Positions 16,743 to 41,512 of a stretch of DNA of 41,882 bases are shown here, one piece after another. The number at the start of each line of letters is the position of its first letter. Within the stretch, counting starts at the first letter, position 1. The notes below the pieces were generated by a model, which was not told the origin of the DNA, ran no database searches, and saw nothing but the letters and a program-made list of their open reading frames with translations. Source of the DNA: a virus (lineage: Duplodnaviria > Caudoviricetes); the IMG/VR virus record IMGVR_UViG_3300017648_000192, positions 1 to 41,882 of that record. One strand, written 5' to 3'. Position numbers and translations under genes: made by a program.

Positions 16743-17422
16743 GAATCAAGGAACGTGAACTTCTCGATGTTACCGAATCCATGACCGTGACCGACTGTGC
16801 GCAGTGCGGTGTCGTGTTCGCTCTGCCAACAACATATGTCAGTCGGCGCCGGGATGACGGATTGACCTTTTACTGCCCGAACGGTCATCTCCTTTCGTAC
16901 ACGGGCGGTGACAAAAAGCGAATCAGAGATCTCGAGGCGAACCTGGAATTCGTCCGCGGACAACGTGATGGTCAGGAGCGCAGGGCCGAAGCGGCCCTGC
17001 GGAGCCTTAGTGCCACGAAGGGTGTTGTTACCAAGCTCAAAAAGCGAGCGGCAGCGGGGATATGCCCGTGCTGTAATCGGCATTTCGACGCGCTCGAAAG
17101 CCACATGGAGGCGATGAAAGATGTCGAGCGCCTCTATCCCCGCATCCCCCTAGACGCGTTCGCATTGGCAGCACTCGATGCGCTTGATATGGCTGATTTC
17201 GAGCCGTCGCTTGAGGACGTGCTGATTCAGCGCGGCGTGATGAGGGCTACATTGGAGTTTCTTCCTGCGATGAATGGACATCAGAGGCGTGTGACGTTTC
17301 GGGTTGGGGACGGGTCGTCGTTTGGCGAGTTCGGCACTGGCCCGACAATCGACGCCGCGATCCGGGCGGCGGTGGCCGTAGCGAAGAAGGGTGAAAAACC
17401 CCATAACCACGGGGAAATCTGA
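16739..17422 (+). CDS. Hypothetical protein: zinc ribbons plus coiled coil, possibly a two-gene fusion
   Basis: CAQCG...FYCPNGH, coiled coil, CPCCNRH; GGAG SD. Confidence 0.6.
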   Translation: MRIKERELLDVTESMTVTDCAQCGVVFALPTTYVSRRRDDGLTFYCPNGHLLSYTGGDKKRIRDLEANLEFVRGQRDGQERRAEAALRSLSATKGVVTKLKKRAAAGICPCCNRHFDALESHMEAMKDVERLYPRIPLDAFALAALDALDMADFEPSLEDVLIQRGVMRATLEFLPAMNGHQRRVTFRVGDGSSFGEFGTGPTIDAAIRAAVAVAKKGEKPHNHGEI

Positions 17423-17510
17423 TATAATAAGGTCAACCTAAACAAATGGAGAGGCGGTGCGCTAACACCCCTCTCCGTGGCCCATCATCACTAGGAGGAT
17501 GACCGGCATG
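17420..17510 (+). promoter_or_regulatory. Extended -10 promoter plus two-hairpin leader (copy 2)
   Basis: TGaTATAAT 17420-17428; hairpin 17448-17476; near-identical to 14575-14669. Confidence 0.65.
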
Positions 17511-18658: not shown

Positions 18659-18746
18659 GCGCTCCGTCTTCACCGGCGGAGCGCTGCCTGCTATACTGGA
18701 ACCACGACCCCTGGGAAGGACGTTCGTTCGCCATGCCCAGGGGTTT
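18659..18746 (+). promoter_or_regulatory. Putative late promoter region
   Basis: Inverted repeat GCGCTCCG/CGGAGCGC (18659-18684), TGcTATACT (18689-18697), stem ACCCCTGGG/CCCAGGGGT (18707-18744) before terS. Confidence 0.5.
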
Positions 18747-18749
18747 CCC

Positions 18750-19196
18750 GTGTCCGGATCGCCCGAACAATCGAAGAAGATGACGCCGAAGCAGCAGCGG
18801 TTCGTGGACGCCTATGTTGGTGAGGCTCGATTTAATGCGTCTCGTGCGGTGATCGAGGCTGGCTACGTCACCAAAAACCCCAACGACCTCGGGTATCAAC
18901 TCCGCAATACTCCGCATGTTCGCGCGCGTATTGACGAAATCTTGGAAAACGAGACCCTCAGAGCCCCGGAGATTCTTCGCGAACTGACCGATGTGGCGAT
19001 GCGCGGTCTGGATGAATTCATCGAGGTCACCCGGTACGACAAAGAGGGAAATCCGGTTGCGGCCAGGATGGATGCCAGTGCCAAGATGAAGGCGCTGGAG
19101 TTGCTGGGGAAGAACCAATCACTCTTTGTTGACAAGGTTGAACAGACCATCGACGTCGAGGTCCCGGTGTTTAGTATCCGTCGGGTGGAAGACTGA
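18750..19196 (+). CDS. terS: Terminase small subunit
   Basis: MTPKQQRFVDAY...NASRAVIEAGY...KMKALELLGK; start may be ATG 18780. Confidence 0.9.
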   Translation: MSGSPEQSKKMTPKQQRFVDAYVGEARFNASRAVIEAGYVTKNPNDLGYQLRNTPHVRARIDEILENETLRAPEILRELTDVAMRGLDEFIEVTRYDKEGNPVAARMDASAKMKALELLGKNQSLFVDKVEQTIDVEVPVFSIRRVED

Positions 19197-31398: not shown

Positions 31399-31836
31399 CT
31401 ACTCGGGTCGCGCCTGTACCGGATTCGATGACATTTGCTGCCGCATCACATGCTCCAGCATGGCGTCTCGCTTTGCTTGTCGCATGCGCTCCGCCTCGGC
31501 TTCACGGCGATCCTTGACCTTGCCACGCCAGCCGAAGAACGCCATCACAGCCAGAACGAACGATGCACCGGACCATATCCACATATCGGTGTATCCAAGC
31601 GCGGCAGATCCCCATGCAATCGGCATAGCGAGTCCGAGGATGATCGCTGACACCAGCGGGAATGCGATCACGAGCGCACATGCCAAAAGCCACATGAGCG
31701 CAACGAGTAGCCCCAACGCTCCAGCTCCGGCGAGATCGTCGGAACTGGTTGCCGATCCGACGACGTACCCGATCAACGCCTGGAAGAACATCAATAACCC
31801 GAGTAGCAAGCCCAAAATCAGCACGGCAATACGCAT
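31399..31836 (-). CDS. Moron: multi-pass membrane protein
   Basis: GAGGTGA SD before ATG 31836; about four hydrophobic helices and a charged tail. Confidence 0.7.
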   Translation of the reverse strand: MRIAVLILGLLLGLLMFFQALIGYVVGSATSSDDLAGAGALGLLVALMWLLACALVIAFPLVSAIILGLAMPIAWGSAALGYTDMWIWSGASFVLAVMAFFGWRGKVKDRREAEAERMRQAKRDAMLEHVMRQQMSSNPVQARPE

Positions 31837-31896
31837 GATGTCACCTCTTATGGATCTACGTGTCGATGTGTTGATTCTCGCATCAGGAGGGCTGTG

Positions 31897-34455
31897 ATGG
31901 CAACGAACTACGGCCGCCATTCATCCCAATCGCATTACGACTACGGCTACATCGCGCCGGGCCAGATGCGCGGCGTCACATTTGACCGCACGTCGAAGAA
32001 CATGTGGGCGTATCAGCTCGGGATCCTCGCCGGGAAGCACACGGCGGGACCGGACGGATCGCCCGGCAACGTCACGACCCGGCTCGCGCTGTACGCGGTC
32101 GATGGATCGATGAACCCCACAACCCGGCTTGGGTACAGCGACCAGATGACCGTCTCCACGGTGATGAACACGTGGGACGGTGGCGGCAACCAGGTCGCGG
32201 CGATTGCGGTTTCCACGGGTCCGGCGAATACCGCCATCCCGCTGACGGCAAACACCCGGTACCATCTGGCCGTTCTTGGTACGTCCGGCTCGCTCGGGCA
32301 TGGCATGGCTGCCGCCGCATCGATCTCCGGCGACAACCGGAACTTCTACGACCGCTCCGGCCTGTCGCAACCGCCGCCGAATCCGTTCGGCAGCTACAAC
32401 CAGCATTACGAGGGACATGTCTCCATCTGGGCGGTCTGCGAGGACAATGTCGCGCCGAGCAAGCCGGCGGGGCTGTCGCCATCCGGCACGATTCAGGACA
32501 CGGCGCCGGCGTTCAGTGCGCCCTTCGTGGACGCCAACAGCGATCGCGGCGACCAGCTCAACCAGTTCCGGGTTCAGGTCCGGCGCAAGTCGGACAGCGT
32601 GTCGTTTTGGAACGTCACGCTCAACGCGACGAATGCGGAGAAGACCGCGAAGGCGTTCAGTCGCGCCTACGGCGGATCGGCGCTGGCGCGGGGCACGACG
32701 TATCAGTGGCGGACGCAGGTCAGCGACTATTTCGGCACCTGGTCGGAGTGGTCGAACTGGGTGGATTTCACGCCGTCTGCGCTGGGTCTGATCACCCTCA
32801 ACGGGGCACCGACCAGCAAGATCGAAGAGAACCAACCCGCGTTTCAGGGACGATGGACGCACCAAACCAGCACGTCGATGAAGCGCGTACAAATCAGGCT
32901 CTACAACGGAACCGGGTCGATCCTGCTCCAGACCGGCGCCGACTACGATATCGCCGACGTAGCCTCGTCTGCGGCACCTGGCACGTTGTTCACCGTCCCG
33001 TGGGCGAACGCTGGCCTGTCCGCGCTGAGCTGGGGCACGGACTATCAATACAGCATGCGCGGCTATGACGGGTCGCAATGGTCTGACTGGTCGGCAAAAC
33101 GATCCTTCCGCACCAATGCCGCGCCATCGGTCCCGAGCAACCTGTCGCCGAACGCGCCGCCAACGCCGCTTACCAGCATGCCGCTGCTGATCTGCAAGGC
33201 GACCGACGTTGATGACACCGTGGCAACGGGGCTGAAGGTCTACGCCCGGATCAAAAACAACAGCGGCACGGTGCTGCAAACGCGGGAGATGACGTACAAG
33301 TCATCATCCGATCGCTGGGAATACCAGACGACCAGCACCGACCTGGCATCATTCGCCAAATACCGCTGGGATGCGTACAGCTACGACGGCACCCTGTACA
33401 GCGGCGAAAAGACGAGCGCTGGCACCGCGACGACATCCGCCGAGGGCACATTCGAGTACGCGGCCGGTCCGGTGGTAACGATCACGAGCCCGACGGATGG
33501 CGAAACGCTCACCAGCAGCAGCGTCACCGTGGCATGGACGGTGGCGAACGGCACGCCATTCCGCGCGGTCGTCACGATCTACGACGACGATGGCGAGATC
33601 GTGAGCCGGACCACCGACGTCACCACAAATCCCATCACCCTACCGAGCCCCGGTATCCGGACCGGTCAGTCGTACACGCTCGATGTTGAGGTCACGACCA
33701 CGACATCGCTGGTCGGACTGTCCGCACCGGTCGCGTTCGATGTGGCGTATCCGGCGCCGGACGCGCTCGCCAACGTGCAGGCGACGGCGATCAAGATCGG
33801 CACGGACATCTGGGAGTCCGCAATCCGGATCGACTGGGACCAAACGACGTACCCGTCCGGCGACTGGGTGGACTACACCATCGTGCGGCAGGACAACCCG
33901 GACATCACTGTATTTGCGGGCACGTCGCCGACCGATACGGTGTTCATCGATTATTTCCCGCCATCGGGCGACGACGTGAGTTACATCGTCACGCAATCCA
34001 TTCTCGTCGGGCTGGACACGCTCGTCAGCGTGCCGGTGGTGGTGACGGCGCGGATCGATCTGGGCGGCGTCGTACTGTGCAGCACGCGAGATCCCGAGGG
34101 CGTGCGCACCACGCTGCGGTACACCAGCGAGCGGGAACACGACCGGACGATCGATCAGACCGCCTATTACCCGCTCTCCGGCGCCAACCCGACGACGCTG
34201 CGGTCCCGGCAATACGTCCGCGAGCCGGGCTTCGACGTGCAGTTGTTCGATGATGCATCGGCATCGTCGCACGACCGTCGACGCGAGTTGGAGATCGTCG
34301 ACCGATCCGGCGACACGCTCTGTTACCGGGACAACCACGGGCGGAAGATGTTTGTGACGATGCCCGAATGCCGGATCACCGACCAGGTGCCCGACTGGTA
34401 CGTGGGAACGATCGGCCTGCGCGAGGAGCGGTACAGCGAGGAGGTCGAGTCGTGA
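31897..34455 (+). CDS. Distal-tail-position protein with FN3/Ig-like repeats
   Basis: First + strand gene after tape measure; YQWRTQV..WSEWS and YQYSMRGYDG..WSDWS repeats. Confidence 0.75.
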   Translation: MATNYGRHSSQSHYDYGYIAPGQMRGVTFDRTSKNMWAYQLGILAGKHTAGPDGSPGNVTTRLALYAVDGSMNPTTRLGYSDQMTVSTVMNTWDGGGNQVAAIAVSTGPANTAIPLTANTRYHLAVLGTSGSLGHGMAAAASISGDNRNFYDRSGLSQPPPNPFGSYNQHYEGHVSIWAVCEDNVAPSKPAGLSPSGTIQDTAPAFSAPFVDANSDRGDQLNQFRVQVRRKSDSVSFWNVTLNATNAEKTAKAFSRAYGGSALARGTTYQWRTQVSDYFGTWSEWSNWVDFTPSALGLITLNGAPTSKIEENQPAFQGRWTHQTSTSMKRVQIRLYNGTGSILLQTGADYDIADVASSAAPGTLFTVPWANAGLSALSWGTDYQYSMRGYDGSQWSDWSAKRSFRTNAAPSVPSNLSPNAPPTPLTSMPLLICKATDVDDTVATGLKVYARIKNNSGTVLQTREMTYKSSSDRWEYQTTSTDLASFAKYRWDAYSYDGTLYSGEKTSAGTATTSAEGTFEYAAGPVVTITSPTDGETLTSSSVTVAWTVANGTPFRAVVTIYDDDGEIVSRTTDVTTNPITLPSPGIRTGQSYTLDVEVTTTTSLVGLSAPVAFDVAYPAPDALANVQATAIKIGTDIWESAIRIDWDQTTYPSGDWVDYTIVRQDNPDITVFAGTSPTDTVFIDYFPPSGDDVSYIVTQSILVGLDTLVSVPVVVTARIDLGGVVLCSTRDPEGVRTTLRYTSEREHDRTIDQTAYYPLSGANPTTLRSRQYVREPGFDVQLFDDASASSHDRRRELEIVDRSGDTLCYRDNHGRKMFVTMPECRITDQVPDWYVGTIGLREERYSEEVES

Positions 34456-35531
34456 ACGGTGGGGACATCATCGTCGATTACGAGCTCTGGCGGGCGACGA
34501 TCGACAACCAGCTCGTCGAGAACATCACCGACGTGTTTACGGGCGGACAGGCATCGCTCAACCATGACCGGGCGATCTCCACGCAAGCCACGTTCGAGGT
34601 CCGGGACGCGGCGGCGATCGATCCGTACACGGACTATCTCGCCGTGTTCCTCAATCGCGAATATACCGACGGACGGCCATCGGAGCGCGATCAGCTCGGG
34701 CTTTACACCGCCGGCGTGCCGACTGGCGTGCGTACCGTCGAGATCGCCGAGGGTGTTTATGTCGGCAACGACCTGACGGCCGTGCTGGCCCGGAACGCCT
34801 TCCGCGATACCTACAACATCACGGCGGGGACGAACTACGTCACGGCGGTCATCGCGATCATCGGTCTGACCGACCTGACGCGGTACAGCATTATCCCGAC
34901 CGATCAGGTGCTGGCATCCCCGCGATCGTTTCCCGTGGGCACCACGTACCTCGAGGCGTGCAACATCCTACTGGAGGCGATCGGCTACTACCACATGGCG
35001 ATGGCTCCGGACGGCACGCTGGTCAGCATGCCCAGCCGCAACATCGAATACGTCGAACCGTACCGGATGATCACGCCCGACGACCTGATGGCGCCGGTCA
35101 TCCCACAACCGACCGACACGACCGTCGCCAACGTCGTGATCGTCGTGAAAGACAACCTGAACGAACCGCCGCTGAGCGCAGTCCGCGTCAACGACGATCC
35201 GGCGAGCCCAACATCCACACACAATCTCGGCATCATCACACGAGTCGAGACGCGATCCGAGCTGGCGGATCAGGCAGCCGTCAACGCGCTGGCGGACCGC
35301 CTGCTCTCCGAGGGCCGCACGTTTTACCAGACCGCACGCACGACACTGCTGCCCGATCCGGGCATCCTGTTTCCGCATCAGACCGTCGATATGCAGGGCG
35401 TCGGTCGGTTGTCGATCCTCGACGGTCGCTGGTGGGTTCGGACGGCGACGATGGGCTTTTCGCCGGCATCCGGCGGCGCAGTCGTGGAACTGAACCGCGT
35501 GACTGACCGCATCAAGGGAACGATTGTTTAA
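34452..35531 (+). CDS. Tail tip/baseplate hub protein
   Basis: GTG overlapping previous stop with GAGGAGG SD; ANVVIV...DDPASPTS...G, PDP...TV...WWV pattern of siphovirus hub proteins. Confidence 0.75.
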   Translation: MNGGDIIVDYELWRATIDNQLVENITDVFTGGQASLNHDRAISTQATFEVRDAAAIDPYTDYLAVFLNREYTDGRPSERDQLGLYTAGVPTGVRTVEIAEGVYVGNDLTAVLARNAFRDTYNITAGTNYVTAVIAIIGLTDLTRYSIIPTDQVLASPRSFPVGTTYLEACNILLEAIGYYHMAMAPDGTLVSMPSRNIEYVEPYRMITPDDLMAPVIPQPTDTTVANVVIVVKDNLNEPPLSAVRVNDDPASPTSTHNLGIITRVETRSELADQAAVNALADRLLSEGRTFYQTARTTLLPDPGILFPHQTVDMQGVGRLSILDGRWWVRTATMGFSPASGGAVVELNRVTDRIKGTIV

Positions 35532-35534
35532 ATG

Positions 35535-36023
35535 CTATTTCACGTGACGCCATGTGCGACCAAAAACCGCATCTCGAATAGTCGCGGGATCGACACCATA
35601 TCGCCGCGCCTCTCTCGCATAGAATCCGTAGGGCGCGTTTTTGGCCAGCTTGCGCAGACGTTTTACCGCCATATCGTTCAACTTTGCCTGAGGCGACTCA
35701 CTGCCATGATGAGCGATAACCATTCGTCCTTTGCGGATCATATCTTGTGTATTATCGCGATTCGTCCCCAGGAACAAATGAGAGGGATTGCAGCATCTCG
35801 GGTTGTCACAGGCGTGACAGACAACCATTCCGTCCGGAATAGAGCCCTTGACGAGCATCCATGCGACTCGGTGGGAAGAGATCGCTTTGCGATGAACCCA
35901 AAATTGTCCATATCCAGACGGAATCGTACAGGCTTGCCATTCCCAGCAGGTGGAAAAGTCGCTACTCGTTTCCACCTTCTCCCAGAATCGCTTTATGTCA
36001 CTTGGTGTAAAATCCGGGTGCAT
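35535..36023 (-). CDS. HNH homing endonuclease with C-terminal HTH
   Basis: RFWEKV, CWEWQ, SHRVAW, VCHACDNPRCCNPSHLFLGTNRDNTQDM. Confidence 0.93.
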   Translation of the reverse strand: MHPDFTPSDIKRFWEKVETSSDFSTCWEWQACTIPSGYGQFWVHRKAISSHRVAWMLVKGSIPDGMVVCHACDNPRCCNPSHLFLGTNRDNTQDMIRKGRMVIAHHGSESPQAKLNDMAVKRLRKLAKNAPYGFYAREARRYGVDPATIRDAVFGRTWRHVK

Positions 36024-36113
36024 TCTGATCGCCTCCTACATAGGCTGATTGGAGTGCCGTGCCTCGGGCTGTTCCACCAGCGCCGGGGCTTTCTGCGTGT
36101 CTCAATTATACCA
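36021..36113 (-). promoter_or_regulatory. Extended -10 promoter plus two-hairpin leader (copy 3, diverged)
   Basis: Minus strand TGgTATAAT, then GCCCCGG-C-GCTG-gtggaa-CAGC-CCGAGGC, then hairpin over TAGGAGG. Confidence 0.55.
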
Positions 36114-36150
36114 ATTTCCGCGCGGTTATGGGCCTTTTGGAGGTAACGGT

Positions 36151-36945
36151 ATGAGCTACCTTGACAGTGCGATGAAGCGACTCGAATCAATGGTCGGGAA
36201 TGCATTGGCCCGGGCGGCGCCGTTCCGGGCGATCGTCACCAGCGTGGACGGGAACGGAGTCACGATCCGGCGACTGGAGGCAGCGACGGCCGAGACGGAG
36301 CGCCGGGCACGTGTGTCAGGAATTGCGCCCAAGACAGGTGATGAAATTCTTTGCCTTCCGGTCAACGGAAAGCCGGTGGTATTGGGCACGGTCAATAGGC
36401 CCGGAACCGTTGTTGTTGATCCACGGCCAGCAACGACGGTAATGCCATGGATGTCCGGTCGTTGGTACGGATCCCACACATATCTGGGTGTGTCCGGGTT
36501 CTCGACAGGGACATTAACGCCTAATGCAACGTACAGCATCCCCTTCTCCCCTCCGGTGGATGTCGCCATTGACCGAATCGCCATCATCGTCACCGGCGCG
36601 GTTGCGGGAAGTCAGGCAAGGATCGGGGTGTTAGCGGCGAATGACGCATCCGGTTTTGGCATAGATCCGATTGTAGACGCCGCCGTGAACACCGCAACAA
36701 CAGGGGTCAAGGATGCGGCAATCGACGTCGAGCTACAATCCGGGACGTTGTATACGTTGGCGATTGTGGCATCCCATGCAATCACCATCAATACATTCAC
36801 GCCGGTTCGTACAATGACCGCCAATACCAACGTCATTGCCGGACTGAAGACATCAACATACCGAGACTCGCCGACATTTACCTGGTCGCAACCAACATCG
36901 GCGTGGACTGACACAAACCCATTAATTCAGGTTCGGCGGGCATAA
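36151..36945 (+). CDS. Tail tip protein (N-terminal OB-like domain, beta-rich C-terminus)
   Basis: GGAGGT SD; FRAIVTSVDG..VTI...PKTGDEILCL..NGKPVVLG. Confidence 0.7.
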   Translation: MSYLDSAMKRLESMVGNALARAAPFRAIVTSVDGNGVTIRRLEAATAETERRARVSGIAPKTGDEILCLPVNGKPVVLGTVNRPGTVVVDPRPATTVMPWMSGRWYGSHTYLGVSGFSTGTLTPNATYSIPFSPPVDVAIDRIAIIVTGAVAGSQARIGVLAANDASGFGIDPIVDAAVNTATTGVKDAAIDVELQSGTLYTLAIVASHAITINTFTPVRTMTANTNVIAGLKTSTYRDSPTFTWSQPTSAWTDTNPLIQVRRA

Positions 36946-36996
36946 CGGCAATGTGCCAGGAGGGTACATGCATGATCGACGTCATGGAGGGGCGGA

Positions 36997-37334
36997 ATGT
37001 CCGAGACGATGTTAGCCGCCCTGATCGGGTTAGCGGGCACGACGGTCACGGCGATCGCGACGGTGGTCGTGGCCATCATTCAGACGCAGAAGCTCAGGGA
37101 CGAGCGGTCCACGGCTCGGGAAGATCGCGACATCGCCGCGCAAACGGTTCGAACACTGGAGGTCGAGGCGGAGGTGCAATCGGAACATTGCTCGGGATCG
37201 CCAGCCTCGTCCTCGCCCGGGTCGGGGTCGATCCCGGCGATCGACTTTGCCGGGACCGGTGGCGGGCCGACATGATTACGGCACGGATCGAGAGCGAGAA
37301 GCGCATCCGCGAGCTGACGGGAGGCGAGGTGTGA
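36997..37334 (+). pseudogene. Single-TM coiled-coil protein of lysis region, apparently split by a 1-nt frameshift near 37185
   Basis: Good SD, TM and coiled coil to ...EVQSE, then low complexity; -1 frame continues TLLGIASLVL...RELTGGEV and ends in GTGA overlap with next gene. Confidence 0.5.
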
Positions 37335-37522
37335 GCGAAAAGCCGAAGCCGGACCTCCGCCTCGATCCGCGCTGGACCGTCTTCCGGTGTCCGAAATGCG
37401 GCGGATTTGTCTGCGAAGGCATCCCGGGGATCGGCGGTCACATCGAGACGTACTGTCGGCGGTGCAAACCGCCAGCGGACGGCGAGCGCCCCCGGATCGT
37501 GATCGAGCACAAGGCGGCGTAG
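37331..37522 (+). CDS. Mu Com-like zinc-finger RNA-binding regulator
   Basis: 63 aa; FRCPKCGGFVCEG...IETYCRRCK matches the Com pattern RCxxC...IE.KCxRC; GAGG SD. Confidence 0.72.
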   Translation: MSEKPKPDLRLDPRWTVFRCPKCGGFVCEGIPGIGGHIETYCRRCKPPADGERPRIVIEHKAA

Positions 37523-37568
37523 CGCCCGGTATACTTGGAGCAACAGAGGAAGATCATGGCCCGTTATG

Positions 37569-37609
37569 GCCCGGCATGGCCTCCCAGTGGGAGACGTGTC
37601 GGGCTTTTT
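37569..37609 (+). terminator. Intrinsic terminator in endolysin leader
   Basis: GCCCGGCATG..CTCCC/GGGAG..CGTGTCGGGC followed by TTTTT, 21 nt before endolysin ATG. Confidence 0.7.
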
Positions 37610-37630
37610 GCGTTTCAGGAGCACATCATC

Positions 37631-38863
37631 ATGGCAATCCAGCGCGTCCCATTCCCTCCATACGATGACCGGCCGATCAACCCGTACGCCAAGGTCGGCA
37701 ATGGCGCGAACTACGGCGTGTGCGAGCGCACGGGCGCATCATTCGCTCACAGCATGGTCGGCTACCTCAGTTCGACCGATGCGTGGTTCCGCCGCGCCGA
37801 CGTGGCATCGCTGACCCCGTGGGGGATTGGTGGCAGCGCTGATGGCGCGCTGGACGGCAAGATCTATCGCTGGATGGACTACACGAAATACAGCGACGTA
37901 CAGCCCTGGTCGTCCGGTCCGTGGAATGCACCGGGCTATGGGGATGGCCCGGCATTTGTCGCGATGCGTGGCGTCGAGGGGATTAATGGTCGTGCCGAAG
38001 CGATCGAAACCTCGGATGGCGGCAACATCAACACGCCGATGTCCACAAAACAGTGGCGGTCATTCATCTGGCTCTCAGCCGCAATCGCGCATGCGGGAGG
38101 TATCACCTCGGAGACCTACCGGTCGAAATTGGCGTTCATGCAACACCGGGAAATAACGACGCCCGCATACAAAGACTGTCCATTCGAGCGCATCTACAAC
38201 TACACCGACGAGTACATCGCCGCAATCGTCGCGCTCATGTCGTACTTTGAGGGCAGAAACGACAATATAAACACCCTTCTGTTCACAATCGCTGGCCTGA
38301 CGATCGACCTCCGCGACGTTGGCCGCATGCGCGAAGGGGGAGCGGCACCCGTGCCCACGCCGAAGCCGGACGAGCCGGCAGCTCCTGCCTGGGTGGCCGG
38401 TGCAAGCGTTCGGGCGAAGAAAGAGATCCTCGTCCGGCAGGCGCCATCAACCAGCGCCACGGTCGGCATGGTCATCAAAGGTGGCGAGTTCGCCAAGCTC
38501 ATCACCGGCGATATCCGGACCGGAAACGGCATGGACTGGCTGGACGTCCTGACCGTCAACGGGACGGGCTGGGTGCCGAAACAGGACCTCGAGCTCGCAT
38601 CGAAAGAAACCACCTCGCCAGGTCCGATCTTCCACGCCTTCGACAAGCCCCGTACGTTCACGGTCGGAAGGGGGGGCGCGACCATCCGCCGGTGGGCGAG
38701 TCGCGAATCGGACATCATCGTGCAATACGTCAAGCCGGGGACGAAGATCGCGACGGCCGGCTACTACTTCGGAGAAAAGGTCAGCGGCGAGGACCGGTGG
38801 CTGGTGCAAGACGACGATCCTCGCGGTCGTATCCACGCCGGCGCGTTCGTCGAGTCGATCTGA
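37631..38863 (+). CDS. Endolysin: zinc amidase-like catalytic domain plus SH3-like cell-wall-binding domains
   Basis: FAHS, AIET, QHRE...KDCP ligand pattern; P/A-rich linker; VRQAPST...GWV; AGGAG SD. Confidence 0.8.
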   Translation: MAIQRVPFPPYDDRPINPYAKVGNGANYGVCERTGASFAHSMVGYLSSTDAWFRRADVASLTPWGIGGSADGALDGKIYRWMDYTKYSDVQPWSSGPWNAPGYGDGPAFVAMRGVEGINGRAEAIETSDGGNINTPMSTKQWRSFIWLSAAIAHAGGITSETYRSKLAFMQHREITTPAYKDCPFERIYNYTDEYIAAIVALMSYFEGRNDNINTLLFTIAGLTIDLRDVGRMREGGAAPVPTPKPDEPAAPAWVAGASVRAKKEILVRQAPSTSATVGMVIKGGEFAKLITGDIRTGNGMDWLDVLTVNGTGWVPKQDLELASKETTSPGPIFHAFDKPRTFTVGRGGATIRRWASRESDIIVQYVKPGTKIATAGYYFGEKVSGEDRWLVQDDDPRGRIHAGAFVESI

Positions 38864-38981
38864 GCGGGAGGTGATCGCCCCGCTGGGGCCATCTCGCACT
38901 GCCGGGGTGCGTGTGCGATGCCCGGTCATTTGACGGTTATTTGATTTTCGACACCGTTCCATCACATAAAGGAGCAACGAC

Positions 38982-39242
38982 ATGACCGCACAAACCAAGG
39001 CCGCCGCCCTCCGCGGTGCCCTCATGGCCGTCGGCGTGTTCGTCGTCACGCTGGCCACGGCCCGCCTCGCCGGGAGCGCGTGGGAGCCATCGATCTACAC
39101 GGCCGTCATCGGTGCCGGGGGCGTCTTCGGGATTCGCGCCGGCATCGAGGGGCTGTACGACGCGAACCGCGCCAAAACGGGCGACGTGCGTGACAGCGAC
39201 GTGCAGCCGCTGAACGTGCAAGATCCCCGCACCTGGGTCTAG
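38982..39242 (+). CDS. Holin
   Basis: 86 aa, two TM segments, hydrophilic C-terminus, after endolysin; AAGGAG SD. Confidence 0.7.
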   Translation: MTAQTKAAALRGALMAVGVFVVTLATARLAGSAWEPSIYTAVIGAGGVFGIRAGIEGLYDANRAKTGDVRDSDVQPLNVQDPRTWV

Positions 39243-39256
39243 GAGGGCAATAACCA

Positions 39257-41512
39257 ATGGCAACCCGCCTCGTCTGGGAGATCATCCCCCGCGCTGACGG
39301 CACCCCGTGGGCCGACTTCCTCGTGCACATCGCCGTGCCCGCGACCACCACGACGCCCCGCGGCACGTTCCCCGGCACCGTCATGGCCGGCGGCGTCGAT
39401 GTCACCAACATGCTGCCGTACACGACCGACGCGGACGGCCGCTGGGAAGCCGAACTCGAGGTCGGTGTGCCCCTGGTGCGCATCCCGACCGGGGCAGCGG
39501 TGACACGGGGCACATCCACGTCGTACCCGCAGCCGCGTCCGGTCGCGTTCGTCGTCCCCGACGGTGACGGCCCGATCTCGCTGATGACAATCCTGGCGAG
39601 CACACATCCGGACCCGGCGGACCCGACGCTGCCCAACATCGTGGCCGGGCTGGAGTCCGCGCTCGACGACCATGTGCGCGATTGGGACAACCCGCACGAC
39701 GTCACCGCGTCGCAATTGGCCGATCTCGATAGCGCCGTCAGCGCCGTACCCGATGTGGCGGCCAATACCGCAGCCCGGCACACACACGCCAATGCCGATG
39801 TGCTGGACGCGATCACCGCGCCGTACACGGTGGCGGATGACGACAAGCTCGCGGGCATCGCCGATGGTGCGACCGCCAACGCCACGGATGCCGAGCTGCG
39901 CGACCGGACCACGCATACCGGCGTGCAAGCGATCAGCACCGTAACCGGGCTGGCCGATGCGCTGGATGCCAAACAGGACGCCGATGCACTCGGCACGGCG
40001 GCCTACACGGATGTCACGGAATACGCGACGGCCACGCAGGGCAGCACCGCCGATAACGCCGTGCAACCCGGAACACTGGCGAGCGAGCTGACCGCGCACG
40101 ACGCCGCCAACCGGGATCGCAGTAACCACACAGGTACGCAGGCAGCCAGAACGATCGCGGACTTCGATGCGGCGGTGGAGGCTGTCGGCGACGTGGCTGC
40201 GAACACGGCGGCGCGGCATACGCATGCCAACATGGAGACGCTGGACGACGTGACGGACGCACGGCTGGTGCCGGATGCCCCGGTGCGGGTCGGGCAGATG
40301 GTGTCATGGGATGGGACGGGGCCGGCCTGGCGGGACCTGCCGGGCGCGGTGGTGCCCGATCTCGTGGCATCCCCGCACGGCGCATGGACGCCGGAGGGGG
40401 CGGTGACGGTGACGCCGAGCGCGAGCGTCGAGGTGCGGGGTAATGCGTGGTGGCTGTGCGAGGGGACAAAAAACCTGATCACAAACCCAAGCGTCGAAGA
40501 ATCGCTCTCGGGGTGGAGCGCATCAGGGTCGTCGACGGTCGAACGAGTGATTGCGGCGAGCGAAGGAATCGTTGCCAAGCACGGATCTTATGTGATCAAG
40601 GCGACCCGCAACGACAACAACATAGTCGCGAGTCGACAAGTTACGCTGCTCGTTGCGGGGGAGCACACCTTCTCCGGGTATGTTTGGATTCCGCCGGCGA
40701 TGGGAGGTGCGCTCGGTCGTAATATAGCAACCAGTTATCCCGGGCAATCGGTTGTCGGTCAAGTCCCCGCTGACGACGACGCGCGTGGGGCATGGCAACG
40801 CATTGCGACGACCATCAACGACGTGACCTCTGGGCTTACCGGGTGGCTTCAATTCAATTTCATCACCTCTCCCGGGTATATCGTCTACATTGACGCCACG
40901 CAAGCCGAAGCCAAGCCCTACGCCACGCCATTCACCGTCGGCACCCGGGCCCCCGGAACTATCGCCATCCCCCACGCCACCCGCCCCGCCGTCCTCCTGA
41001 TCCGCTACCGCGAGTCCGGCTTGCCCGTAACCACCGAGGCCGTCACCCTCGACGGCAATGACACCGGCACGTTCGGGCGCTTCGGCGTCGTATCGTGGGA
41101 CGGCAGCGCCATCACCATCGCCACTACCAGCGACACCGGCGCCGAGGCCAACATGTACGACCTGTACGGGGTGGCGGTCTGGGACGACGCCGACGCGCTG
41201 GACGGCCTCACACTGGACGCGCTCATGCGGTTCAGTGGGCCATACACAATGCCCATGGTTCCCGCGTATTACGTGCCGGACCCGTTGCCCGCGACCATCG
41301 CCGGGTATTATCCCGCCAACCGCAAGATCGCGACGGGCGGAACCAGCGCGCGACCACTTCCCGGCACGGACGGCACCGGCATCACGCTGGCCGCCGACAT
41401 GCCCGTGCACGACACCGGGAGACGCCTCAACGTATCGAGCGTCGATTACGCGCTGATCATGACCGACCTGGGGCAGTATTGGACCGCCGCCAGCAAGCTC
41501 ATCGCACTGTAG
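39257..41512 (+). CDS. Tail fibre/receptor-binding protein with HxH fibre repeats and CBM-like domain
   Basis: NPHDVT, RHTHAN x2, THTG/NHTGTQ fibre motifs; NLITNPSVE..LSGW carbohydrate-binding-module-like start. Confidence 0.72.
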   Translation: MATRLVWEIIPRADGTPWADFLVHIAVPATTTTPRGTFPGTVMAGGVDVTNMLPYTTDADGRWEAELEVGVPLVRIPTGAAVTRGTSTSYPQPRPVAFVVPDGDGPISLMTILASTHPDPADPTLPNIVAGLESALDDHVRDWDNPHDVTASQLADLDSAVSAVPDVAANTAARHTHANADVLDAITAPYTVADDDKLAGIADGATANATDAELRDRTTHTGVQAISTVTGLADALDAKQDADALGTAAYTDVTEYATATQGSTADNAVQPGTLASELTAHDAANRDRSNHTGTQAARTIADFDAAVEAVGDVAANTAARHTHANMETLDDVTDARLVPDAPVRVGQMVSWDGTGPAWRDLPGAVVPDLVASPHGAWTPEGAVTVTPSASVEVRGNAWWLCEGTKNLITNPSVEESLSGWSASGSSTVERVIAASEGIVAKHGSYVIKATRNDNNIVASRQVTLLVAGEHTFSGYVWIPPAMGGALGRNIATSYPGQSVVGQVPADDDARGAWQRIATTINDVTSGLTGWLQFNFITSPGYIVYIDATQAEAKPYATPFTVGTRAPGTIAIPHATRPAVLLIRYRESGLPVTTEAVTLDGNDTGTFGRFGVVSWDGSAITIATTSDTGAEANMYDLYGVAVWDDADALDGLTLDALMRFSGPYTMPMVPAYYVPDPLPATIAGYYPANRKIATGGTSARPLPGTDGTGITLAADMPVHDTGRRLNVSSVDYALIMTDLGQYWTAASKLIAL

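Follow-up and report, generated by a model that had tools for sequence, protein, structure and literature searches.

A Com-like zinc-ribbon gene and an overlapping hairpin leader as a candidate antitermination switch before the predicted endolysin gene of a probable Chloroflexia provirus

What might a very small zinc-finger protein be doing at the far end of a head-and-tail gene run, directly before a structured leader RNA and a predicted endolysin gene? The question is raised by IMG/VR record IMGVR_UViG_3300017648_000192 (Duplodnaviria; Caudoviricetes), a single complete provirus record whose 41,882 nucleotides (nt) were analysed in full and are here called the window. A first-pass annotation of this DNA had described a 63-amino-acid (aa) CxxC...CxxC protein at 37331-37522, three ATGGCC repeats at 37556, 37566 and 37576 with an exact 10-nt spacing, and a hairpin with a TTTTT tract just before the Shine-Dalgarno (SD) sequence of an endolysin gene, its 5' arm overlapped by repeats 2 and 3. 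It had proposed that the protein, likened to Com of phage Mu, binds the repeats and prevents termination. All of these features of the leader and the zinc-finger gene were confirmed in their places, and the hairpin with its overlap was recovered by folding.

With somewhat more belief than doubt, we favour antitermination by a protein-held hairpin that delays expression of the endolysin. The 63-aa zinc-ribbon protein would bind a hairpin of the form AU-GGCC/6-nt loop/GGCC (37556-37571), just 3' of its own gene, and the bound hairpin would keep four bases from the foot of an overlapping predicted terminator, so that transcription could proceed into the predicted endolysin gene. In the absence of the protein, this hairpin (hairpin 1) is predicted to fold early and to give way to the long stem, whose end meets the U-tract; once the protein is bound, the leftover stem would stop 4 nt before it. 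As the zinc-finger gene sits at the distal end of the head-and-tail run, the protein would be made late, and the switch would hold back lysis until the end of that run has been expressed. Transcripts could arrive by read-through from upstream, and perhaps also from a TATACT box in the leader. We infer these steps of binding, termination, read-through and timing from what could be observed or computed, namely the anatomy of the locus, its conservation in one orthologue, the hairpin geometry, the folding energies and a remote kinship of the protein to Com.

The pattern ATGGCC-N4-ATGGCC, with at most one mismatch, matches three times in the window against 0.26 expected, a count reached by none of 100 shuffles, and an identical hexamer present three times at 10-nt spacing occurs there once (and in 1 of 200 shuffled windows). 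Repeats 1 and 2 and the start of repeat 3 make up a 24-nt block on the plus strand (37556-37579), which is the candidate protein-binding site. Folding places hairpin 1, the predicted antiterminator, at 37558-37571 (+), with GGCC paired to GGCC across a 6-nt loop that ends in AU and a further AU before the stem; repeats 2 and 3 offer an alternative register, hairpin 2 (37568-37581, +), and the two hairpins are mutually exclusive since they share one strand. The terminator-like hairpin (37568-37615, +) has an 11-base-pair (bp) outer stem joining 37568-37578 to 37595-37605, a 5-bp inner stem (37581-85/37589-93) and a U-rich tail, in which TTTTT at 37605-37609 is followed by GCGTTT. Its energy of -28 kcal/mol (z -3.95) was equalled by none of 200 shuffles. 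Repeat 2 overlaps its 5' arm by 4 nt, and repeat 3 runs from that arm through the internal loop into the base of the inner stem.

Hairpin 1 takes four bases at the foot of the terminator stem. In prefix folding, it is the earlier structure and persists until the terminator 3' arm is complete. Holding it up to the U-tract costs 5.4 kcal/mol in the window, and the stem that remains ends 4 nt short of the U-tract. These folding models support a difference in energy that a protein could overcome.

A single scan of 185,579 species genomes yielded one orthologous locus, L015, on a 2667-nt contig of a Chloroflexia metagenome-assembled genome (G001). The two zinc-finger proteins are 47% identical and their genes agree at 108 of 182 nt (59%), and the spacer between gene and repeat block has diverged; the block itself is kept at 24 of 24 nt and is the longest exact match between window positions 35001-40000 and all 2667 nt of the contig. 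At 59% identity such agreement would be expected by chance with a probability of about 4e-6, a rough figure. The first 12 nt of the kept block lie outside the terminator, with unpaired loop bases among them. Conservation downstream of the gene, to which the first-pass annotation had looked as a test of its proposal, extends to repeats 1 and 2 and to a terminator-like hairpin and gives out at repeat 3, which has decayed to ATGGTT and maintains hairpin 2 only through weaker G-U pairs. The hairpin of L015 reaches -25.2 kcal/mol (z -3.5; 1 of 300 shuffles as stable); a G-U pair of the outer stem has become G-C, the inner stem is remodelled yet paired, and four U and an SD follow. There, holding hairpin 1 up to the U-tract costs 2.4 kcal/mol. 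The next gene encodes a clear Amidase_2 protein (E 2.3e-11) that has just a short C-terminal stretch in common with the amidase of the window.

The TATACT box, which the first-pass annotation had read as a -10 element, is present at 37530-37535 (+), but its standing as a promoter is less secure. It has no TG extension and at best three of six matching -35 positions, and a consensus scan called no promoter-like site here; the same scan, which admits only simple hairpins with 3-8 nt loops, did not list the terminator either. The box is missing from L015, where the 90 nt preceding the repeats contain no TAnnnT and 1770 nt of upstream sequence contain no extended -10, and read-through is therefore the likely source of transcripts in that locus. 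These details bear on another explanation, that the repeats are DNA sites one helical turn apart through which the zinc ribbon represses or activates a TATACT promoter. Zinc ribbons can bind DNA, the 10-bp spacing is exact, and a TATACT without a good -35 might need an activator; yet the expected start site would place the repeats about 14-40 nt into the transcript, L015 has kept them without the box, and its decayed third repeat still pairs by G-U, an RNA trait. We consider control at the level of DNA very unlikely.

Every repeat also starts with ATG, one in each frame, and the first ATG of the window stands in the endolysin frame with a purine-rich stretch upstream, as would suit a leader in which the repeats open reading frames (ORFs) and traversing ribosomes prevent termination. 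Such an arrangement seems extremely improbable, as a 10-nt spacing always puts one ATG in frame and the frames are not conserved (435, 82 and 30 aa in the window against 133, 296 and 7 aa in L015). Leader ORFs were accordingly rejected as core parts, as were the TATACT box and the third repeat, which L015 does not keep. What the two sequences share suggests a core of zinc finger, hairpin 1, terminator and lysis gene.

TATACT occurs three times on the plus strand of the window, each time between genes. One copy (18692) belongs to an extended -10 (TG-C-TATACT) before the small terminase gene, in a stretch (18689-18750) that is likely a late promoter with a structured leader and in which another hairpin lies over the -35 region. 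The box is followed by a long GC-rich hairpin, and because that hairpin has neither the AU-GGCC motif nor a good U-tract, no second site of the kind before the endolysin was found in the prophage.

Returning to the antitermination reading, the predicted binding site resembles the known target of Com. Com is described as a translational activator of mom that selects a bipartite GAG-N2-CC motif, comprising a 3-4-bp stem closed by C-G and a six-base loop, in which GA is crucial (PMC6483171); the accessible text of that 2019 paper reports no solved complex. The Mu site (GA AUGC CUGCGA GCAU CC) and the window hairpin (AU GGCC CGUUAU GGCC CG) have the same geometry, that is, a dinucleotide, a 4-bp stem closed by C-G, and a 6-nt loop that starts with C and ends in the same dinucleotide. 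When both strands of the window were searched for such a hairpin, with AU or GA allowed, only 37556 and 37566 emerged. The view of the repeats as protein-binding boxes thus gains from the block kept in L015 and from the Com-site geometry, although the unit of the site is likely a hairpin made from two repeats and not three linear boxes. Rfam at its gathering score gave no match in the window, in L015 or in three more distant loci considered below (L035, L083 and L090), and three weak matches in 36900-38000 were far below their cut-offs.

The protein itself (37331-37522, +) is a four-cysteine (CCCC) zinc ribbon with a GTG start, an SD (GGAGG, 37320-37324, +) 6 nt 5' of that start, and its cysteines arranged as C20-x2-C23...C42-x2-C45. 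A phmmer search of 1.84 billion representatives returned six matches at E<=0.001, the query included, and profile searches with cluster look-ups led to a family of 11 sequences, which are 35-48% identical to the query, a near-copy aside. In hhalign, this family aligned to Mu Com with a probability of 89.5% (E 2e-6 for the pair) across 28 finger columns, and an unrelated CxxC protein of the window, used as a control, reached 20% (E 1e-3). The 97.5% obtained against a 4-row alignment containing Mu Com is partly circular, because that alignment includes L035, which was found with the same profile. Six residues are invariant with Mu Com, R19, C20, C23, C42, R44 and C45 (R-C-x2-C...C-x-R-C), and the finger starts 14 residues later than in Com. 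In the ESM Atlas, the top feature match (0.93, 140 of 256 shared) has the automatic name 'Mu-like prophage protein Com', and by structure a PF10122 cluster appears at TM 0.55, below the naming bar. An AlphaFold model shows four short beta-strands at a pLDDT of 64; fold searches with it were not informative, Foldseek finding no match at E<=0.001 and the best VIA match reaching Z 3.3. As far as sequence comparison reaches, a remote kinship to Com is plausible.

Similarities to the Com/mom system are the size and pattern of the protein (Com being a CCCC zinc finger of ~62 aa with R-C-x2-C...I-x3-C-x-R-C), a target hairpin of like geometry just after or within the gene, and a bipartite repeat at 10-nt spacing. 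In contrast to Com, the protein described here has an 18-aa N-terminal extension and no PF10122 match; its hairpin overlaps a terminator-like stem, whereas the mom structure hides a start codon; and the next gene is amidase-like rather than mom, with its SD outside the stem. In profile score, GA motif and target gene, then, the locus stands apart from the Com family. A parallel in gene order is offered by the com-like genes that precede Pseudomonas llpA bacteriocin genes and tailocin lytic enzymes, whose role is described as yet to be explored (PMC6240691). Those too are short four-cysteine genes, set immediately ahead of a lytic or killing gene within a cluster of phage origin, but they match PF10122, and the available text gives no RNA site or mechanism for them (PMC6240691).

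In its mode of action, the leader element likely works, by analogy, like the ribonucleic antiterminator (RAT) sites of BglG, SacY and LicT, where a protein holds a small hairpin over the 5' side of an intrinsic terminator (PMC12591593, PMC3369931). The computed folds of both the window and L015 have the corresponding trait, a small hairpin that cannot coexist with the foot of the terminator. The BglG-type proteins differ in having CAT and PRD domains, a 29-30-nt RAT and control by phosphorylation, none of which is seen here, where the protein has 63 aa and no such Pfam match. ANTAR systems (EutV, AmiR, NasR) likewise use six-base loops with one hairpin at the 5' base of a terminator, but need two hairpins to be present together, each with A1 and G4 in its loop (PMC3369931). 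By contrast, the loops of the window start with C, its hairpins exclude each other, and its protein contains no ANTAR domain.

A number of observations weigh against an antiterminator of Com type, and the first of these concern the protein. Pfam, PHROGs and NCBIfam scans returned nothing informative for it, with no match to PHROG 6417, and PF10122 matched neither the window protein at E 0.1 nor any of four family members at E 1 (cut-off 22.9 bits; Mu Com itself, 36.8 bits); of the likeness to Com first proposed, the remote kinship by hhalign is plausible and the profile match fails. A duplicated zinc ribbon from the first search scores 87% in hhalign, near Mu Com, so the hhalign result denotes a Com-like zinc ribbon and not membership, and the alignment may reflect merely a shared zinc-ribbon class. 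For the L015 orthologue, the named clusters of the ESM Atlas include no Com family. The RNA raises a similar difficulty, since all four hairpins of the window and L015 carry AU where Com needs GA, and because GA is crucial to Com (PMC6483171), a change of specificity must be assumed.

The signals for termination and read-through are also imperfect. The U-tracts are short (five U in the window, four in L015), and the terminator-like hairpin at 36061 (+), upstream of the zinc-finger gene, could limit read-through into that gene. In L015, moreover, hairpin 1 releases the terminator 3' arm, which can then base-pair with the SD of the endolysin gene at -10.1 kcal/mol, a pairing that leaves room for a translational effect. 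The short U-tracts and this pairing would both suit a protein that binds the same hairpin and controls translation of the endolysin or stability of its RNA, with the long stem as a switch of SD access, and the activity of Mu Com on translation (PMC6483171) would supply the precedent. We regard this as unlikely, because in neither locus is the SD part of the long stem, its predicted accessibility hardly shifts (from 0.35 to 0.26 in the window and from 0.22 to 0.19 in L015), the anti-SD hairpin of the window amounts to just -3.9 kcal/mol, and a U-rich tail directly follows the stem in both.

A further difficulty for the antitermination reading is that arrays of ATGGCC-type 10-mers are common in viral and microbial contigs without zinc fingers. 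DNA pattern scans returned 9, 1, 16 and 21 stretches from viral contigs (2 of the 16 and 7 of the 21 being duplicates) and 17 from metagenome contigs, and a zinc-finger gene was upstream in 0 of 9, 0 of 1, 0 of 17, 0 of 14 distinct and 0 of 14 distinct cases. The readable loci of the AU type number two, the window and L015. Given how common such arrays are without a finger, the repeat alone is weak evidence and the case rests on one orthologue. It is conceivable, then, that the terminator or attenuator is real and the zinc finger is not its ligand, the repeats being a common array that travels with the gene and read-through being leaky or due to another factor; arrays in many contigs without the finger, one of them a triple copy at a host site of G001, and a finger-hairpin pairing seen twice would fit such a case. 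We judge it quite unlikely, however, given that 24 of 24 nt including loop bases are kept despite 59% coding identity, and that similar layouts of finger, hairpin and terminator occur at three distant loci.

Many unrelated viral contigs, in the stretches labelled L106-L126, carry non-coding arrays of the 10-mer ATGGCCC-NNN. The array at the host site (L021 1491-1520; G001:C17 near 6600) comprises three perfect copies of the phage-leader 10-mer directly behind a gene labelled by eye as AlbA/ATPase/wHTH-like, with no zinc finger and no terminator; its exact 16-mer was found in 1 of 192 genomes, and it may be a chance array or a second binding site. The DNA pattern was found only in G001 among the 192 genomes of the order, and in G001 together with one coding-gene match among 301 of the class. 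Protein scans for further loci gave 4, 0, 2 and 1 candidates in viral contigs, all spurious or unrelated, and none in metagenome contigs. The proteins of L035 and L015 had no tblastn match in 50,697 phage records, and a blastn search with the leader found just 21-nt matches in mycobacteriophage records.

Profile searches across 192 genomes of the order of L015 and 401 of its phylum gave weak matches at more distant Chloroflexota loci; one genome among those searched, G140, is unpublished and enters only as part of the counts. A C-terminal CxxC..CxxC was present in 10 of 33 of these that were examined by script, and three of the 10 (L035, L083 and L090), judged by eye, have an extended -10 as well as a small hairpin overlapped by a terminator-like stem; the other seven do not. 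In each of the three modules, at L083 1492-1730, L090 1450-1833 and L035 2358-2023 (minus strand), the genes that follow are of capsid or tail type. The small hairpin is of the GA type in L035, where its loop has 7 nt, reads GGCC/CAACGA/GGCC in L083 and belongs to a different type in L090; the proteins of L083 and L090 match PHROG 6417, 'translational regulator', and none of the 192 genomes of the order holds a PF10122 match above the cut-off. Because all three have a -10, the TATACT of the window is plausible though not essential. On the unfavourable side, holding the small hairpin would cost 10.3 kcal/mol in L035 and 12.1 kcal/mol in L083, and the U-tract of L035 is poor.

It is tempting to go further and suppose that Com-type zinc ribbons form a family of one-domain antiterminators of ~60 aa whose RNA readout can be re-coded, that the branch in this Chloroflexia phage went from a GA to an AU loop, and that the protein is a checkpoint that opens the endolysin terminator only after the head-and-tail genes have been transcribed. 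We offer this broader idea tentatively, with rather more doubt than belief. If true, the AU-type and GA-type protein/RNA pairs would be orthogonal. If the antitermination reading itself is right, the locus would represent a very small class of antiterminator, a means of timing lysis that differs from both Q-type antiterminators and late activators, and a natural change of specificity from GA to AU through which RNA recognition by Com could be studied, with the L035, L083 and L090 modules as comparators. In the library searched, outside which most subscription papers lie, no description of a Com-like antitermination system was found, and neither 'zinc' nor 'phage' occurs as a whole word in the accessible text of a 2025 review on antiterminators that bind RNA (PMC12591593). 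The locus contributes a loop variant with AU, a probable host in Chloroflexia, and an orthologue by which core and dispensable parts can be told apart; with the protein (63 aa), the candidate site (18 nt) and the terminator all inside 300 nt, it is a compact case for the com-like genes that stand before lytic genes.

Downstream of the leader, the SD of the endolysin gene (AGGAG, 37617-37621, +) lies outside the terminator stem and is followed by an ATG at 37631. The 410-aa product (37631-38863, +) is a likely endolysin, with Amidase_2 (E 0.0016) and SH3_3 (E 1.2e-5) matches that are both below curated cut-offs. Next come an 86-aa hydrophobic protein (38982-39242, +), holin-like by position and composition only, with one PHROG at E 0.099 and no Pfam or NCBIfam match, and a 751-aa virion fibre/decoration-like protein (39257-41512, +) with weak PHROG matches. 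A switch governing endolysin, holin and fibre together had been envisaged in the first-pass annotation, and here nothing was found to link the holin-like and fibre-like genes to the transcript of the leader: a gap of 118 nt with further hairpins separates the endolysin from the holin-like gene, and both names have weak grounds.

The provirus carries integrase and HTH repressor, primase/helicase, portal, capsid, tail and tape-measure genes. At its left end lies a host gyrA-like gene whose GyrA is 74-82% identical to the GyrA of G001, G122 and G169, a likeness from which the host is likely a member of the class Chloroflexia; we presume, purely as a guess, that its order is Thermomicrobiales. The sequencing runs that carry the stretch are soil metagenomes, with no RNA run among those listed. 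Four DNA runs from two samples, one of which may be the source, show zero sequence differences over the stretch and no indel at 37150-37334.

Upstream of the zinc-finger gene, a 92-aa ORF with a hydrophobic N-terminal stretch (36997-37275, +; weak matches only, phrog_6664 at E 0.0019) is the preceding cistron, and a similar small membrane ORF is also found upstream in L015. Between the 92-aa ORF and the zinc-finger gene, a 20-codon ORF (37272-37334, +) shares ATGA with the stop of the former and GTGA with the start of the latter, an arrangement that likely provides translational coupling. Given this chain of stop/start overlaps, the zinc-finger gene looks like the last of a coupled run. The 92-aa ORF ends in a low-complexity tail, and another frame encodes a hydrophobic helix and a charged stretch up to 37334, so that 37150-37334 is possibly a frameshifted or overlapping small membrane gene.

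A late-gene switch was sought by a PHROGs scan of 22 ORFs of the early region, which revealed no activator family. Each of the two HNH endonuclease genes comes with a structured leader and a -10 of its own, either extended or consensus (17420-17499, +, and 36110-36023, -), and the two leaders share a similar GGCG..TG..AACA.CCC stretch with no Rfam match. The second of these genes is antisense within the tail region, and its leader coincides with the plus-strand terminator-like hairpin at 36061. Finally, a 173-aa membrane protein (31399-31920, -; phrog_9418) lies between the tape-measure gene and the next tail gene as a moron-like insert.

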